Positions 32,167 to 39,110 of a stretch of DNA of 64,000 bases are shown here, piece by piece; position 1 is the first letter of the stretch, and each line of letters opens with the position of its first letter. The stretch is from an uncultured bacterium. Its GTDB lineage: Bacteria; Fidelibacterota; Marinisomatia; Marinisomatales; UBA1611. A program made the position numbers and the translations under genes. The notes beneath the pieces are model-generated. The model was given only the letters and a program-made list of their open reading frames with translations, did not search any database and was not told the DNA's origin. The stretch covers positions 288,001 through 352,000 of the forward strand of contig CALSPG010000007.1 of the NCBI GenBank assembly GCA_943788175.1, given 5' to 3'.

Positions 32167-35100
32167 TTAGAATGGTGAACTTGAGTAAACACCTCCTTTT
32201 TTTTCTAATTTTAAATCTTTTAATGTCGGTGATTTTACGTTGAGTTTAAAGTATATGCCTTGTCCAATGCCTCCAGGCGTCCAATTAAGCGAGAGTTCCC
32301 AACAATGTAAATCTCTATTTACGGAAACATTATGACTAACTAGATCTCTTTGGACCATATCAAACCTAGCCCGGTATGCAATTTTCCAATATTTAGATAG
32401 TTTTATATTAGAAGAACTATTAACCCAAAGAGTCTTATTTGAGTTAAGAGGATTAAAAGCATTGTAATTATAACTAATACTTATATTTGTGCTCCATATG
32501 CTCTCGTTGGTTAATGTATTTTTGAAGCTCGTTATTGGGTTTTGTAACCCTGGTCCACCTAAGTCATCTTGAATTGCAATTGAATCCTTAGGTGTCAATT
32601 CAGTATCAATTTGATTGTTTAGTGCTTTACCTTTTAATCTAAACCCTGTGGATATACGTGCACTGGTTAATCGTGGTGCAATAATACCTCGTTCATTTTT
32701 ATTGAATTTTTCAACTCTGCTTCCGGTTTTCGTATCAAAACCATAAAAATCATGTGTTGTAGACAAATCGAGGTTTAATTTTCCCAAAATTTTAGATCTT
32801 AATGAAGATCTCAAGTTAGACAACTTATAATTTTCTGCGGAAAAATTATAACTGCTACTCATTCTCAAACTAAAAAGGTCAATTTTTTTTTCTTCTTCTT
32901 TGATAATTGTTTTTGCCTGAAATATATTATTTAAAGAAAAGTTAATATTTTTTTGTTCACTCATTGGCGTACTGCCTGCCATCGTGCCTGCGAACCTATC
33001 ATGTTTAATTTTTTCATTGTTTAAAGGATTATTATAGTCTTTTATATATCCAAAGTCATAACCAAAAAGGGGTTTTGAAAAATCAGGGCTCCAAGAAAAT
33101 CCAATAGAAGGCGATGCAACATGTCTTATGACTTTTAATGGCCCAAAAGGGACAGCAAAAAGACCGTATAATTTTGTATTCGCATTTACAGAAACCGCTC
33201 CCGTAGTGCGAGTATTAAATCCGGTTTTTTCTACAGTTTGAAAACTACTTAATGAGTCGATCCAGATTTTATCAAATGTTCTATTTACCCAGCTAGATCT
33301 AAAATTAATATTCGGATTTACATTGATATTTTTAAACAATTTCATAGGGGCATTCAAAGATGCGGTATGGGTCCAGCCATCATCTTGGAATAATGTGTCG
33401 ATGGGGTTTCCAAAACTATCTTTAGCCCAATCAAAACTGTTTAATGAATCAGAAAATGTAGACTTATAATATTTTTTTTCTTTTTTAGTATAGTTAAACC
33501 CATAATTCCACATAATAGTGTTGTACCATTTTTTTATGTTAGCTGCTGTTGGGAAAAGAGAACTTTGACCATGTCTAAAAGAAATTTTTGGTAAGGTTCT
33601 ATTTGAAATATTTAGTTGTGACCCAGATTGCGTTGGTGGAACGTAATAATTACTAGAATTATCGACTTTTTTATCTACTAAAAGATCTTGGTTTGAATAC
33701 AAATTTAAGCTAAAAGAGTTTTTAGATTTTGGCCACCTTTTTGAATAAGTAATATTTGATGTCGCTTTTTGATCCATTCTTTGAGCTAGGTCTAATCCAT
33801 AATTTCTGTTGTAGTTTCCATTACTTGAATAAGTCGTATTTGCATTAAAACTTTGATTATTTCTTAATTTTTGGACATGGTTCCATTGAACCGTAAAGTT
33901 ACTATTTCTATTTTCTTTTAAAGAAATAATATCTTCACTGCCAGATAAGAATTGTTGATTGCGAATGAAAAGGCTCCCACTATATTTATAACGTAGTCTA
34001 TATTGATTCTTAACATTTAGAACAGCTCCTTGTCTGTCACCAAAGCTGAGTGTAAATTTTGAATCCCAATAATCATTTGGAGCCCAATAAAAACCCAATC
34101 CGTCAATATATTGCCCTCGGGATTTGCTTTCGCCGTAAGCAGGCATTATCCAACCCGAATGTCTTTTACCGCCTTGATGTGGAAAAATTGCTAGGGGTAT
34201 TCCAAAAACAGGTATTTCAGCTATTTTCAATACGATTGGCTTAGCTATAACGACGTCATCTTGAATGATTTTCATTTTTTCCGATTCAAAATGAAAGTGA
34301 GGAGTGTCTAAATCGCAAGTGGTAAAAATAGAGTTTTTTATGTAGATAGTTTTATTGCTTTCATTTCGAATTTCGCTACCTCTATAAAAGCCATCATCTG
34401 CTTTTGTTTTACCATAATTTATTTTACCTCTTCTGGTATCTAAATTATAGGTCATTTCATTACCAACCATTGGATCGCGACCTTTTTCTATTATTGACGG
34501 CTTTAGATAACTGCTTGTAGAATCAGCCCAATCTCTAGAAAAGGCTTTAAGAACTCTAGTTTTCCAGTTTACTTTTATAAATCCTGCTTTGAGGTCTGTA
34601 TTATCATGCCGAGTTTGTGCATTTCCTGACAAATTTGTGTTTTCATCTTTAAGAAAATAATCGAGCTTATCAGCAGAATAAATCAGTGGAAAAGTAGAGC
34701 CGTCAGCTTTTGTATTTGGAATGTATTTTCCTTGAGCACCCCCACTAACAATTATACTATTAAGCTCTTTGTTGTAAAATTTCATTATAATAGTATCGCC
34801 TGAGGTAATATTTTTACCTTTATAAAGAGAGTCTTCGAATATATGATAAGTTGTTGATGCCATCCCTACTAATCTTAATGAATCAAGCGAACCATTAATA
34901 AAAAAACCATCTAATCTTTTGCTAGTCATGTCATCATTTTTTTCAAAAACAGTATGAGAAGAATCCTTTTTGATATTGTCAAATTCCTTTATGCTACTAG
35001 ATATTTTTGCATTTTTAGGAATTAAGATTCTGCTCAATGATTTTTTATCATATTGTAGTACTACTTGTTCGCCAACTATAGTTTTTTGTTCGTCAACAAT

Positions 35101-35694
35101 TATTGGTTCTCTGTCTAAAATAGTTTTTTCAGTAATGTCATTATAGTTAGCGAGGCCACATGTAGCTGTTCTAAGGGAGTCAATGATTTCCACATTGCCA
35201 ATCGCTATGTAGGATATAGCTTCAGATCCGGGATTTTTAACATATTCAATTCTATCAGCTTTGATTTTTTGATCATTTTGAATCAATTCAACGTTGCCTA
35301 GAGCAATGCCACTGTCGAGTTCTGTAAAATAAATAAGACTGTCGGCTACAAGCTTGTAGTCTAAATCATAAATTGTTGGATTTCCGTTACTTTCAAGTTT
35401 ATTTTTTTTTGAATAAAAAGTAATGCTGTCGCATTCAAGAATTAAATCGTCTTTGAATATTTTGACTTGATTGAATAAAAATGCAATATCTTTTCGTTCC
35501 TTATAAACGCTCTTTTGGCAAGTTAATTTAATATCTCCTTTTTGAAACTGGACGTTTCCCTGAAGATGTTTTACAGTTTCAAAGCCTATCTTTTTACTCT
35601 CTAAAACGTCTGCCCGCTTTAATCTTAACTTTTCTGCATTAGCGAGTGTCATCAAAAAGCCAAGGGTTAAAATAATTTTCACGTTAAATGACAA
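32167..35694 (-). CDS. lptD: LPS assembly protein LptD-like, with extended OstA/LptA-like N-terminal jellyrolls
   Basis: Signal peptide; repeated 'GNV' OstA-like units; 'FTTCDLDTPHFHF', 'SGWIMP.YGES', C-terminal 'RDLHCWE...W.P' typical of FCB-group LptD. Confidence 0.85.
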   Translation of the reverse strand: MSFNVKIILTLGFLMTLANAEKLRLKRADVLESKKIGFETVKHLQGNVQFQKGDIKLTCQKSVYKERKDIAFLFNQVKIFKDDLILECDSITFYSKKNKLESNGNPTIYDLDYKLVADSLIYFTELDSGIALGNVELIQNDQKIKADRIEYVKNPGSEAISYIAIGNVEIIDSLRTATCGLANYNDITEKTILDREPIIVDEQKTIVGEQVVLQYDKKSLSRILIPKNAKISSSIKEFDNIKKDSSHTVFEKNDDMTSKRLDGFFINGSLDSLRLVGMASTTYHIFEDSLYKGKNITSGDTIIMKFYNKELNSIIVSGGAQGKYIPNTKADGSTFPLIYSADKLDYFLKDENTNLSGNAQTRHDNTDLKAGFIKVNWKTRVLKAFSRDWADSTSSYLKPSIIEKGRDPMVGNEMTYNLDTRRGKINYGKTKADDGFYRGSEIRNESNKTIYIKNSIFTTCDLDTPHFHFESEKMKIIQDDVVIAKPIVLKIAEIPVFGIPLAIFPHQGGKRHSGWIMPAYGESKSRGQYIDGLGFYWAPNDYWDSKFTLSFGDRQGAVLNVKNQYRLRYKYSGSLFIRNQQFLSGSEDIISLKENRNSNFTVQWNHVQKLRNNQSFNANTTYSSNGNYNRNYGLDLAQRMDQKATSNITYSKRWPKSKNSFSLNLYSNQDLLVDKKVDNSSNYYVPPTQSGSQLNISNRTLPKISFRHGQSSLFPTAANIKKWYNTIMWNYGFNYTKKEKKYYKSTFSDSLNSFDWAKDSFGNPIDTLFQDDGWTHTASLNAPMKLFKNINVNPNINFRSSWVNRTFDKIWIDSLSSFQTVEKTGFNTRTTGAVSVNANTKLYGLFAVPFGPLKVIRHVASPSIGFSWSPDFSKPLFGYDFGYIKDYNNPLNNEKIKHDRFAGTMAGSTPMSEQKNINFSLNNIFQAKTIIKEEEKKIDLFSLRMSSSYNFSAENYKLSNLRSSLRSKILGKLNLDLSTTHDFYGFDTKTGSRVEKFNKNERGIIAPRLTSARISTGFRLKGKALNNQIDTELTPKDSIAIQDDLGGPGLQNPITSFKNTLTNESIWSTNISISYNYNAFNPLNSNKTLWVNSSSNIKLSKYWKIAYRARFDMVQRDLVSHNVSVNRDLHCWELSLNWTPGGIGQGIYFKLNVKSPTLKDLKLEKKGGVYSSSPF

Positions 35695-35868: not shown

Positions 35869-35942
35869 GCCGGTCTAGCTGAGTTGGTTCAAGCGTCTGA
35901 TTCGTAATCAGAAGTAGGCGAGTTCGATTCTCGTGTCCGGCT
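35869..35942 (+). tRNA. tRNA-Thr (anticodon CGT), CCA not encoded
   Basis: Cloverleaf GCCGGTC/GTCCGGC, anticodon stem TCTGA/TCAGA with loop TT-CGT-AA, T-arm GCGAG-TTCGATT-CTCGT; several non-canonical positions. Confidence 0.85.
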
Positions 35943-37027: not shown

Positions 37028-37666
37028 ATGAGATACAATCACATAGTCTGGGATTGGAATGGAACATTGCTAGATGACCTCTGGTTGTGTTTAGATGCAA
37101 TAAATTCTGTTTTAGATTCTCGAGGTATGAATAGAGTTGATGAAATTAGCTACCGTAAAATCTTTACATTCCCTGTTATCGATTATTATGAACAATTAGG
37201 ATTTAATTTTAAAAACGAAAAATTTCCCATTGTTGGTTTTTTAGATTATTATCGAAAGTATTTTGAAAAATGTTCCCTACATAAAAATGCAAGTTTAGTT
37301 TTAAGAAAAAACAAAATGAATGGATTGTCCCAGTCTATTTTATCGGCTGGTAAGGAGTCCTCATTGTATAGCTGGGTTAAGTCACACAATATTGAAAACT
37401 ATTTCAATGATTTGATTGGTGTTGAAAATGATAATGCTGATGGTAAAATTGAAGCTGGACTCAACTGGATATCCCAAACAGGTATTTCAAAACATAAAAT
37501 TTTATTAATTGGAGATACAATTCATGATAGTGATGTTGCTGCGGAAATGGGAATTGATTGTGCATTGGTAAGTATTGGACATGTTAGTAAAGAAAGGCTT
37601 AAAAATGTAGGCCCCCCAGTATTTGACAGTTTATTGTCAGTTTTGAGTTATGTAGAAAGATGTTAG
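37028..37666 (+). CDS. HAD family hydrolase (phosphoglycolate-phosphatase-like)
   Basis: Motif I 'WDWNGTLLDD', 'ILSA', 'GK', 'IGDTIHD'. Confidence 0.9.
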   Translation: MRYNHIVWDWNGTLLDDLWLCLDAINSVLDSRGMNRVDEISYRKIFTFPVIDYYEQLGFNFKNEKFPIVGFLDYYRKYFEKCSLHKNASLVLRKNKMNGLSQSILSAGKESSLYSWVKSHNIENYFNDLIGVENDNADGKIEAGLNWISQTGISKHKILLIGDTIHDSDVAAEMGIDCALVSIGHVSKERLKNVGPPVFDSLLSVLSYVERC

Positions 37667-37667
37667 A

Positions 37668-37705
37668 TATTAGAAACCCTCATTAAAAAATGAGGGTTTC
37701 TAATA
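37668..37705. terminator. Perfect 17-bp inverted repeat, probable bidirectional terminator
   Basis: TATTAGAAACCCTCATT-aaaa-AATGAGGGTTTCTAATA, one base after the HAD gene stop. Confidence 0.75.
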
Positions 37706-37750
37706 CAAAGTAACCGCTGACCTCCTAAAAGTTTTCAACTCTTAGGTGTG

Positions 37751-37798
37751 TTACACAGCTGATCCTCTGGAGGTCAGCGTTTTAATATAATTAGACAA
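37751..37798 (-). CDS. Putative 15-aa micro-peptide MSNYIKTLTSRGSAV
   Basis: TTG start 7 nt after GGAGG within AAAGGAGGTGATC; TAA at 37753-37751. Confidence 0.4.
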   Translation of the reverse strand: MSNYIKTLTSRGSAV

Positions 37799-37910
37799 CT
37801 GATCACCTCCTTTCGTTTAGTTAATTAATTACACACGTTAAAACATATGAATAAATATAAATATATATCAAATGTTGTTTCTCATTTTATGATGTAAAGT
37901 TTAGGGTGCA

Positions 37911-38432
37911 ATGATTTATATTCACTTAATGCGATTAATATTTCTACTTCTTTTGTCTACTTATCAGTTCGGATGTTTAACAAGCAATCTGGAAATTAAA
38001 GTAGTTTCTGCTGATGAATTATTTGTTGATATCAAAAATAATAATTCTTCAAAAATTGTCTTAGTTAATGTTTGGTCGACTTGGTGTATTCCATGTATTG
38101 AAGAATTTCCTTATATAGTCGACCTTGAGAAAAAGTATAAAAATGAGGATGTAAAGGTGGTTTTTGTGAGCGCAGATTGGGATGAAAATTCTCAAGTAGT
38201 TTATGATTTTTTAGTTAGTGAAGGTGTTACAGGTATTCATTATCGTAAAAAAGAGGGGAACGATGAAAATTTTATTAATGAATTTTCATCGTTTTGGAGT
38301 GGAGCCCTCCCTTTTACTGGTCTCTACAACAAAGATATGGTTCTAAAAAAATACTGGGAAGGGAAAAAAGATGAAGCTTTTTTTAAAAGCAGTATTGATT
38401 CTTTAATAAATAATAGAGGAGAAAAGTTGTGA
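37911..38432 (+). CDS. TlpA-like thioredoxin-fold lipoprotein
   Basis: 'LVNVWSTWCIPCIEEFP', 'GALPFT'; possible lipobox QFG-C; start may be ATG 37929. Confidence 0.85.
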   Translation: MIYIHLMRLIFLLLLSTYQFGCLTSNLEIKVVSADELFVDIKNNNSSKIVLVNVWSTWCIPCIEEFPYIVDLEKKYKNEDVKVVFVSADWDENSQVVYDFLVSEGVTGIHYRKKEGNDENFINEFSSFWSGALPFTGLYNKDMVLKKYWEGKKDEAFFKSSIDSLINNRGEKL

Positions 38433-39016
38433 AAAACATAATTATAATATGCTTGACGGTACTATGTTTTAATTTAGGTGCGAAAGAATTATCTATAGGA
38501 GATGATATTGTAGGCCTTAATTACAGGTTAAATAATATTGACGGGAAAAATCTAAGCATCTCTGATTTAAAAAAAGAAAACGGAATCCTAGTTATTTTTA
38601 GTTGTAATACGTGTCCATGGGTCGTTAGGTGGCAAGATAGATATAATTCTATTGCTAAGACATGTGACGATAATGGAGTTGGTTTTGTTGCCGTCAATTC
38701 AAACGCTAGGTTGCATGACAGTGTTGACAGTATTGAAGAAATGATAAAACATGCAAGGATTAATAAGTATTCTTTTCCTTATGCGATGGATCAAAATGCC
38801 AAATTAGCAAAGGCTTTTGGCGCCGCAAAAACACCTCATGTTTATTTATTTAACAGCGATGGTAAACTTTTTTACAAGGGTGCTATTGATGACAATGCTA
38901 AAAGCGCAAAAAAAGTAAAAAACAATTATCTAAAAGATGCACTTGATGCTTTGGGAAGAAACGAAAAGATTGCGTTGAGCTCAACGAAGGCACTAGGCTG
39001 TTCAATAAAGTTTTAA
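38429..39016 (+). CDS. Exported thioredoxin-family (AhpC/TSA redoxin-like) protein
   Basis: 'VIFSCNTCPWV', 'FGAAKTPHVYLF', 'YKGAIDD', terminal 'GCSIK'. Confidence 0.85.
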   Translation: MKNIIIICLTVLCFNLGAKELSIGDDIVGLNYRLNNIDGKNLSISDLKKENGILVIFSCNTCPWVVRWQDRYNSIAKTCDDNGVGFVAVNSNARLHDSVDSIEEMIKHARINKYSFPYAMDQNAKLAKAFGAAKTPHVYLFNSDGKLFYKGAIDDNAKSAKKVKNNYLKDALDALGRNEKIALSSTKALGCSIKF

Positions 39017-39037: not shown

Positions 39038-39110
39038 TGGCTCGGGCCGGAATCGAACCAGCGACACATGGATTTTCAGTCCACTGCTCTACCAACTGAG
39101 CTACCGAGCC
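39038..39110 (-). tRNA. tRNA-Phe (anticodon GAA), CCA not encoded
   Basis: Minus strand GGCTCGG TA GCTC AGTTGGTA GAGC A GTGGA CT-GAA-AA TCCAT GTGTC GCTGG TTCGATT CCGGC CCGAGCC A. Confidence 0.97.

Follow-up and report, generated by a model that had tools for sequence, protein, structure and literature searches.

A conserved element with an extended Shine-Dalgarno sequence and a 15-codon reading frame in SAR406 bacteria, a candidate 30S-capturing mini-mRNA

What could a long complement of the 16S rRNA tail do in front of a reading frame of 15 codons, in a genome that otherwise rarely uses Shine-Dalgarno (SD) sequences? This question is raised by a locus in the window, the stretch of 64,000 nt of DNA from an uncultured bacterium that was analysed here and to which positions given without a contig name refer. 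SAR406 bacteria form an abundant and uncultured group in the ocean, and a conserved, probably strongly expressed ribosome-binding RNA would bear on the control of translation in them. An earlier note, made from the letters of the window, had described the complement and the frame; here, the structure around the ORF, the relatives of the element, its likeness to the small RNA CC2171 and a link to the extended SD of rpsU are added.

The site and its surroundings

The plus strand reads GATCACCTCCTTTC at 37801-37814 and the minus strand, from 37814 to 37801, reads GAAAGGAGGTGATC. The 16S gene of the same genome (G000:C5, L001) ends in ...CTGGATCACCTCCTTTCT, and GAAAGGAGGTGATC is a perfect 14-nt complement of this 3′ tail, so that the identity with the 16S tail claimed earlier, for a 13-nt SD, is exact over 14 nt in the organism's own rRNA. 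On the minus strand, the complement is followed by AG and TTG (37798-37796), with GGAGG 7 nt before the TTG, and the TTG opens a mini-ORF of 15 codons (37798..37751) with the stop TAA at 37753-37751 and the peptide M(TTG)SNYIKTLTSRGSAV*, all of which had been read correctly in the earlier note.

The exact 13-mer is found twice in the genome of 2,265,538 bases, in the 16S gene itself and in the element. When complements of the tail were ranked by length, they comprised 18 nt (the rRNA gene), 14 nt (the element), one 12-mer, three 11-mers and eight 10-mers, which makes the element the longest 16S-tail complement outside the rRNA gene in this 2.27-Mb genome, and shuffles of the window gave a mean of 0.43 matches to the tail complement with two mismatches allowed. 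Considering its rank and uniqueness in the genome and the shuffle counts, the 14-nt complement is not a product of chance. The genome as a whole is SD-poor (GGAGG occurs 19 times in the 30-nt stretches before 1343 crude ORF starts), which agrees with the earlier remark that other genes have a short SD or none. The duplex of the extended SD (GAAAGGAGGUGAUC, 37801..37814, minus strand) with the 16S tail is predicted at -26.3 kcal/mol, compared to -16.1 kcal/mol for the start region of the genome's own rpsU gene.

The element sits in a 244-nt gap between a HAD hydrolase gene (37028-37666, plus strand) and redoxin genes (37911-39016). The HAD gene is the next one downstream of the element and is convergent with it, so no minus-strand gene follows, as had been noted before. 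The two redoxin/thioredoxin-like genes are adjacent on the plus strand (37911-38432 and 38429-39016, with a 4-base overlap), just upstream of the promoter-like site of the element and on the opposite strand. Two tRNA genes lie on either side of the region (35869-35942, plus strand; 39038-39110, minus strand), and at the gathering thresholds of Rfam the window contains two tRNAs and nothing else. The homologue of LptD at 32167-35694 (minus strand) is unusually long, with 1175 residues.

A consensus scan of the minus strand detected a promoter-like -35 hexamer TTGATA (37866..37871) and a -10 hexamer TATGTT (37842..37847), which are separated by an 18-nt spacer, together agree with the consensus at 9 of 12 positions and predict an RNA 5′ end at ~37836. 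At the other end, folds give a terminator hairpin at 37672..37701 that is common to the element and the convergent HAD gene. The conserved unit is accordingly predicted to be an RNA of ~165 nt, from ~37836 to ~37670 on the minus strand.

The G.U pairs of helix P1 (see below) and the A-to-G changes in the SD fit an RNA from the minus strand only, which makes this the probable functional strand. The plus strand also folds well (z = -6.0), and a terminator-like site is called there; its T run is not kept in relatives. As a candidate for the functional strand it was rejected, because there the G.U pairs would turn into A.C mismatches and because the minus strand is the one that contains the frame. 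Among four metatranscriptome assemblies, whose contigs carry no strand and are a measure neither of expression nor of its absence, X1 contains a single contig over 37242-38600 that spans the whole region, X14 contains a contig of a relative over 37531-37825 that ends at 37825, and X4 and X11 contain no contig over ~37620-37885.

Conservation, reading frame and fold

Relatives were searched for with the RF01867 model first and then with two models of the element itself, R1 and R2, the latter built from 44 copies. The comparison with relatives and with Rfam that had been suggested earlier located the element, by R1, as a single copy in 31 of 54 genomes of the family and in 11 of 15 genera, with RF01867 below its threshold. 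In a sample of the order, R1 detected it in 32 of 151 genomes and in four of 16 families (f1, f9, f10 and f16), with 16/27 genomes in f1, 3/26 in f9, 4/4 in f10 and 8/10 in f16; it was absent from the other twelve families of this sample. In a phylum-wide sample, three of 151 genomes possess the element, all three within its own order. R2 revealed no further families, its additions being fragments at contig ends and one weak match in f12 (E = 0.0014). The bare pattern of the head is present in 58 of 401 genomes of the phylum, compared to one match of a reversed control pattern; the matches L182, L292 and L293 are within long stretches of GC-rich, coding-like sequence and appear to be chance matches.

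The neighbours of the element differ by clade and are unrelated to each other: HAD/redoxin, a symporter/permease, MFS, a carotenoid synthase, a MORN protein and others. A sigma-70-like promoter site travels with it in a sequence scan, as most relatives have TTGACT ~17 nt before TAAAAT, with TAAGAT as a variant, at the same distance from the element, and at the position of the terminator relatives contain other GC-rich hairpins followed by T runs. Its unrelated neighbours, its own promoter-like site and its terminator argue that the element is neither leader nor antisense RNA nor repeat, and suggest a conserved stand-alone unit. The stand-alone transcript proposed earlier is thus supported as a unit, its transcription being predicted from these signals. 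A repeat or mobile element was rejected, since genomes with the element have a single copy. We also rejected a sponge for a GGA-binding regulator, because in many relatives the SD reads GGGGG and GGA is otherwise absent.

Variants of the SD in relatives are A-to-G changes only (GGAGG to GGGGG, AAAGG to AAGGG), by which pairing with CCUCCUUU is kept through G.U pairs. The tight binding of 30S subunits put forward in the earlier note gains comparative support from this, in that an extreme predicted pairing is kept across the order with changes from A to G only. The surroundings of the start, CAGUUGUCUAAU, are conserved beyond what coding needs, and the stretch from the SD to the stop is free of indels in all 44 copies; the 3′ half of the element contains many.

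The reading frame was analysed in an alignment of these 44 copies, which comprise 33 distinct frames. All 44 start with TTG and contain exactly 15 codons, and no stop occurs within frame 0, compared to 40 and 72 stops in the other two frames; when only variable codons are considered, the counts are 0 versus 6 and 41. The stop codon itself is TAA in 29 and TAG in four of the 33 distinct frames. In a subclade of f9, the start is GTG or TTG and the frame has 15-16 codons, and among element-type matches of the head pattern an ATG start was never found. Considering that the frame is open in every copy, ribosomes probably, and judging from the whole comparison very probably, translate the mini-ORF. 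The peptide behaves differently: positions 1-2 (M-S) and 8-10 (L-T-S) do not vary, and positions 3-7 and 11-15 vary radically, position 12 being G, L, K, V, W, E, R, N or I. A per-codon table gave no excess of synonymous over non-synonymous changes that would indicate purifying selection on amino acids, and the constant codons show nearly no synonymous change (CTG in 33, ACC in 33 and TCC in 32 of the 33 distinct sequences), which implies a constraint at the RNA level. We conclude from this alignment that what is under selection is the sequence of the RNA, its spacing and an open frame, and not the peptide, which points to translation itself as what matters. To the earlier question of what is conserved, the answer would then be the SD and the frame but not the peptide, and the suggested abundant micro-peptide finds no support as one with a function of its own.

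The minus strand folds far better than shuffled sequences (z = -8.4). The major helix, P1, is a 10-bp GC-rich pairing of GCUGACCUC (ORF codons 7-10) with GAGGUCAGC; its 5′ strand, GCUGACCUCC (37769..37778), is near-invariant in the 44 copies, and its 3′ strand, GGAGGUCAGC, lies at 37716..37725. It encloses an inner helix, P2, whose loop begins with the stop codon. In the alignment of the 44 copies, 93% of P1/P2 cells are paired, compared to 33-47% when the partners are slid against each other, and six of the 18 pairs have changed on both sides; the P1 core is invariant and so contributes no covariation, and the last C of GCUGACCUCC is unpaired in P1 in 19 of the 44 copies.

The 5′ strand of P1 is also a near copy of the 16S tail and may pair either with the SD (GGAGGU[GAU]CAG with CUG-ACCUCC, a possible 9-bp helix with a 3-nt bulge) or with the 3′ strand of P1. 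The first 71 nt of the RNA fold in the form that pairs SD and mimic (-11.7 kcal/mol). As a stable fold of the full-length RNA this closed form was rejected, as its energy of -54.4 kcal/mol is 11.7 kcal/mol worse than that of the open form (-66.1 kcal/mol); the folds suggest that the mimic may mask the SD only while the RNA is being made. In addition, a long-range helix, P0, is predicted between the RNA 5′ end, GUGUGU (37831..37836), and ACACAC (37746..37751), which overlaps the last base of the stop codon and belongs to the apical part of the hairpin (duplex -8.0 kcal/mol in the window). Two types of P0 are found, GUGUGU/ACACAC in 17 copies (g1, g8 and family f16) and GUGGA/UCCAC in 17 copies (other f1 genera), with -8.3 and -8.1 kcal/mol for matched leaders and loops and -5.6 and -3.9 kcal/mol when these are swapped. 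In 31 of these 34 copies, no more than 5% of leader shuffles reach the cognate energy; P0 is ambiguous in 10 of the 44 copies. The apparent covariation of P0 reflects few independent events, about two sequence types, together with a predicted transcription start.

Likeness to CC2171 and to rpsU

CC2171, a catalogued small RNA (Rfam RF01867), was reportedly described in 2008 in Caulobacter. It gave the one full-length match in a permissive scan of Rfam, with 32.4 bits against a gathering score of 75 (E = 2.4e-5 in the 361-nt scan and 3.5e-5 per genome), and none of 61 relatives reached this gathering score. The two RNAs have a common head, GAAAGGAGGUGAUC(C)AG followed by a non-AUG start (GUG in CC2171, UUG in the element), UCU and NAU, and both are stand-alone and end in a terminator hairpin, each with a short frame that is kept open and little conservation of the peptide. 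Their bodies differ. In CC2171, the helix CAUUGUC:GACAAUG closes a multi-stem domain and the frame has 21-25 codons, whereas the element has P1/P2, the internal tail mimic CUGACCUCC, a helix between the 5′ end and the loop and exactly 15 codons. In the RF01867 alignment, the body of the element shows non-standard pairs and low posterior probability, and the closure CAUUGUC:GACAAUG is missing. The hosts of CC2171 (Alphaproteobacteria) and of the element also belong to different phyla. By score and by body the element is not a member of RF01867, but the comparison indicates that its head works like that of the family.

A pattern scan of named genomes detected at least 120 stretches. Among the matches listed, 119 are GAAAGGAGGTGATCC[AG]GTGTCTCAT, nearly all in Alphaproteobacteria (L016-L135), and one is of the element's own type; the frame of the CC2171 type follows a 17-nt SD and a GTG start, and 104 of the 120 matches listed have 21-25 codons. 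The 118 distinct CC2171 copies among the matches listed have their first in-frame stop at codon index 19-30 in 116 cases, with one in-frame stop in the first 19 codons compared to 76 and 17 off-frame, and use TGA (56), TAA (35) and TAG (27) as stop codons, and their peptides differ between copies. Accordingly sized and open frames of this kind suggest that CC2171 is probably translated and appears to follow the same logic as the element. Expression of CC2171 in Methylorubrum was reported from a Northern blot, in a preprint that states its function to be unknown (bioRxiv 10.1101/2022.01.24.477521). The host ranges are alike in being SD-poor, an SD having been reported for 24.6% of genes in Caulobacter, where two former 'ncRNAs' were also reported to be translated (PMC4117421), and CC2171 may be one of these two. 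Our literature searches gave no paper on a natural bacterial RNA of the element's kind and none that gives CC2171 a function.

In a genome of another order of the same class, the locus L291 (G312:C12) contains a 16-nt complement of the tail, A, TTG TCT AAT, a 20-codon frame and a terminator, with GUGGCCUCC inside the frame and a peptide unlike that of the element. Judged by this layout, L291 is a diverged relative of the element and an intermediate form; it was missed by both R1 and R2, which implies that this kind of RNA is wider than the models show.

The second likeness is to the start region of rpsU, the gene of ribosomal protein bS21. The genome's own rpsU, from 206208 onward in G000:C7:206194-206465 and outside the window, has AGGAGGTGA, 5 nt and GTG, with a 9-nt tail complement that is among the strongest SDs in the genome. 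In 81 genomes of the order (L211-L290, L189), rpsU has an extended SD of 8-12 nt (-16 to -23 kcal/mol) in most families, with the exception of the streamlined ~1-Mb family f12, in which none was found, and a few other clades. Further upstream, many rpsU leaders contain CACC/CCAC, with which the SD might pair. In G049, a genome of the same order without the element, rpsU has the head of the element, AAGGAGGTGATC, GC and GTG, that is, AAGGAGGUGAUC followed by 2 nt and GUG in the element's geometry.

In Flavobacterium johnsoniae, a 13-bp helix between the SD and the anti-SD (ASD) on rpsU mRNA was reported to exclude bS21 sterically, so that initiation on rpsU is gated by the absence of bS21 (PMC13000457; PMC13000453; PMC9976891). 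The rpsU signature is given for Bacteroidia and Chlorobia in the main text of PMC9976891, where Marinimicrobia has no occurrences. The rpsU start of Bacteroidia and the element both have 9-13 or more consecutive pairs with the tail in genomes that otherwise rarely use an SD. The helix of the element is longer and stronger (14 bp, -26.3 kcal/mol, the next complement outside rRNA being 12 nt), and the extended SD stands before rpsU in Bacteroidia and before an orphan 15-codon frame here. In Bacteroidia, the ASD is hidden in a pocket of bS21, bS18 and bS6 to which Tyr54 of bS21, a residue specific to Bacteroidia, belongs. In the genome's own bS21, simple counting gives Arg as residue 54, at a position beyond the aligned part, since the protein aligns with the F. 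johnsoniae chain 7jil_z over residues 2-53 only. Alphaproteobacteria, the hosts of the analogous RNA, are to our knowledge not known to hide the ASD.

There is a hint of an inverse pattern between the element and a long SD on rpsU. A complement of at least 11 nt on rpsU is found in none of 28 genomes with the element and in 12 of 53 without it, and a duplex of -19 kcal/mol or stronger in none of 28 and in 19 of 53, both being comparisons among relatives that are not independent. Clades with the element outside f1 often have a weak rpsU SD (f10, -12.4; f16, -12.7; f9 g51/g95, about -9 kcal/mol). Within f1, the strength of the rpsU SD is similar in genera with and without the element.

What the element may do

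We give a probability of about 0.45 to the reading that the element is a high-affinity, 30S-capturing mini-mRNA which competes with rpsU mRNA for small subunits whose 16S tail is free. The anatomy, conservation, open frame and pairing potential of the element are computed, and from them we infer transcription, capture of 30S subunits and, above all, the link to bS21, which is the weakest step and an argument from analogy. A structured minus-strand mini-mRNA of ~165 nt would capture small subunits and encode no useful peptide. Its head would form a helix of 13-14 bp with the free 3′ tail of 16S rRNA, which would place UUG in the P site with two unpaired bases between helix and start, so that a weak non-AUG start would follow an exposed, maximal SD. 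The GC-rich P1/P2 hairpin would be met from 20 nt after the first base of the start codon, and the hairpin loop beside the stop codon would pair with the predicted 5′ end of the RNA (P0), so that the bound ribosome would have a very strong helix at its back and a pseudoknot ahead of it. Ribosomes that move on would terminate normally, owing to the 15-codon frame and its fixed stop, and the internal copy of the tail, CUGACCUCC, might cover the SD during synthesis of the RNA. If rpsU of Bacteroidia is a guide, the long helix might form only on subunits with a free tail, without bS21, and in competing with rpsU mRNA for such subunits the RNA could sense or tune the make-up of ribosomes. Against this reading stands the similar strength of the rpsU SD in f1 genera with and without the element.

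Much of the same evidence has to be weighed for other explanations. A trans-acting small RNA whose CCUCC segment (GCUGACCUCC) pairs with the SDs of the few SD-led mRNAs, rpsU first, and whose own SD and ORF regulate access to this seed or stabilise the RNA, would explain why the segment is invariant including its last C, which P1 leaves unpaired in 19 of 44 copies, and it would fit the place of rpsU among the strongest SD-led genes of an SD-poor genome and the often weak rpsU SD of element clades outside f1 (complement of at least 11 nt, 0/28 versus 12/53). However, the most stable fold hides the segment within a GC-rich helix of 10 bp, the pattern of rpsU SDs is confounded by relatedness and rpsU is the one target inspected, so we regard such a role as rather unlikely. 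An ordinary small-protein gene, in which a strong SD drives high output of a functional 15-residue peptide, is unlikely in our judgement: it would account for the 15 codons in 44/44 copies, the TAA/TAG stop, the absence of in-frame stops where off-frame stops are frequent and the constant M-S at 1-2 and L-T-S at 8-10, but positions 3-7 and 11-15 change radically, and nearly no synonymous change in the constant codons is what RNA pairing predicts and not selection on a protein. The relative in the other order (G312), with 20 codons and a different peptide, and the differing peptides of CC2171 also speak against it.

The open frame weighs on the idea, which we hold to be quite improbable, that the RNA is a non-translated structural or protein-binding RNA. 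Its 'SD', 'start' and 'stop' would then belong to a binding site, perhaps of a factor specific for the helix, similar to that of SD and ASD, which the SD forms with the internal mimic. The 9-bp helix of SD and mimic with its 3-nt bulge, into which the 5′ 71 nt fold at -11.7 kcal/mol, and the conservation of CAGUUGUCUAAU around the start beyond coding need would suit such an RNA, but frame 0 is free of stops in AT-rich sequence full of off-frame stops, TAA/TAG and TTG/GTG interchange, and CC2171 uses all three stops. A cis-acting leader, attenuator or antisense element of the redoxin genes or the HAD gene, finally, is very improbable. It would be in keeping with the position in the 244-nt gap and with the fold of the plus strand (z = -6.0) and the terminator-like site called there, but other clades have unrelated genes next to the element, its own terminator and, in the window, a convergent gene come after it, the G.U pairs of P1 and the SD fit the minus strand only and the T run of the plus strand is not kept. 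Leader peptides of attenuators, such as the trp and his leaders, and certain translated small RNAs are cases in which the act of translation matters and not the peptide, and the element has in common with them a short open frame, a poorly conserved peptide and a frame that lies over helices the ribosome must open. Unlike them, it lacks a downstream gene, a terminator/antiterminator alternative and a run of regulatory codons.

The reading of the element as a 30S-capturing mini-mRNA can be extended to a speculation that we consider quite doubtful, namely that the element and CC2171 are a dedicated 'first messenger' for subunits with a free 16S tail, newly made or without bS21. The protein bS21 joins the small subunit late, and a test drive has been proposed for eukaryotic 40S subunits. 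Such a test drive of new subunits is also hinted at for bacteria (PMC13000453). In a 'first messenger', a helix of 14-17 bp would hold the 3′ tail precisely in its mature form, a short and harmless frame would offer a trial initiation, an elongation through a tough pseudoknot and a termination, and final maturation of 16S rRNA and loading of bS21 might be coupled to this test drive.

For CC2171, the comparison offers a testable idea, in that conservation would concern a maximal ribosome-binding site, a start codon other than AUG and a frame that is kept open regardless of its peptide. Across the SAR406 order, rpsU bears the extended-SD signature that is known from Bacteroidota rpsU, and in part of the order an orphan RNA bears it as well. 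Pairing of SD and ASD that is reserved for special ribosomes may thus have more than one client, and screens confined to annotated genes, judging by the method given in PMC9976891, would miss an orphan one.

Some other strong SDs deserve mention in their own right. Within the order, L190 (G105:C24) and L200 (G106:C15) have a 12-nt SD (AAGGAGGTGATC) and an ATG start and belong to other genes, one with a 20-codon frame that contains a hydrophobic stretch and one with an 83-residue frame resembling a membrane protein. In the genome analysed here, two identical sites near contig ends (G000:C8:9356 and G000:C7:408080) have AGAAAGGAGGT, 7 nt, TTG and a 23-codon frame, and this pair is probably a repeat that breaks the assembly.
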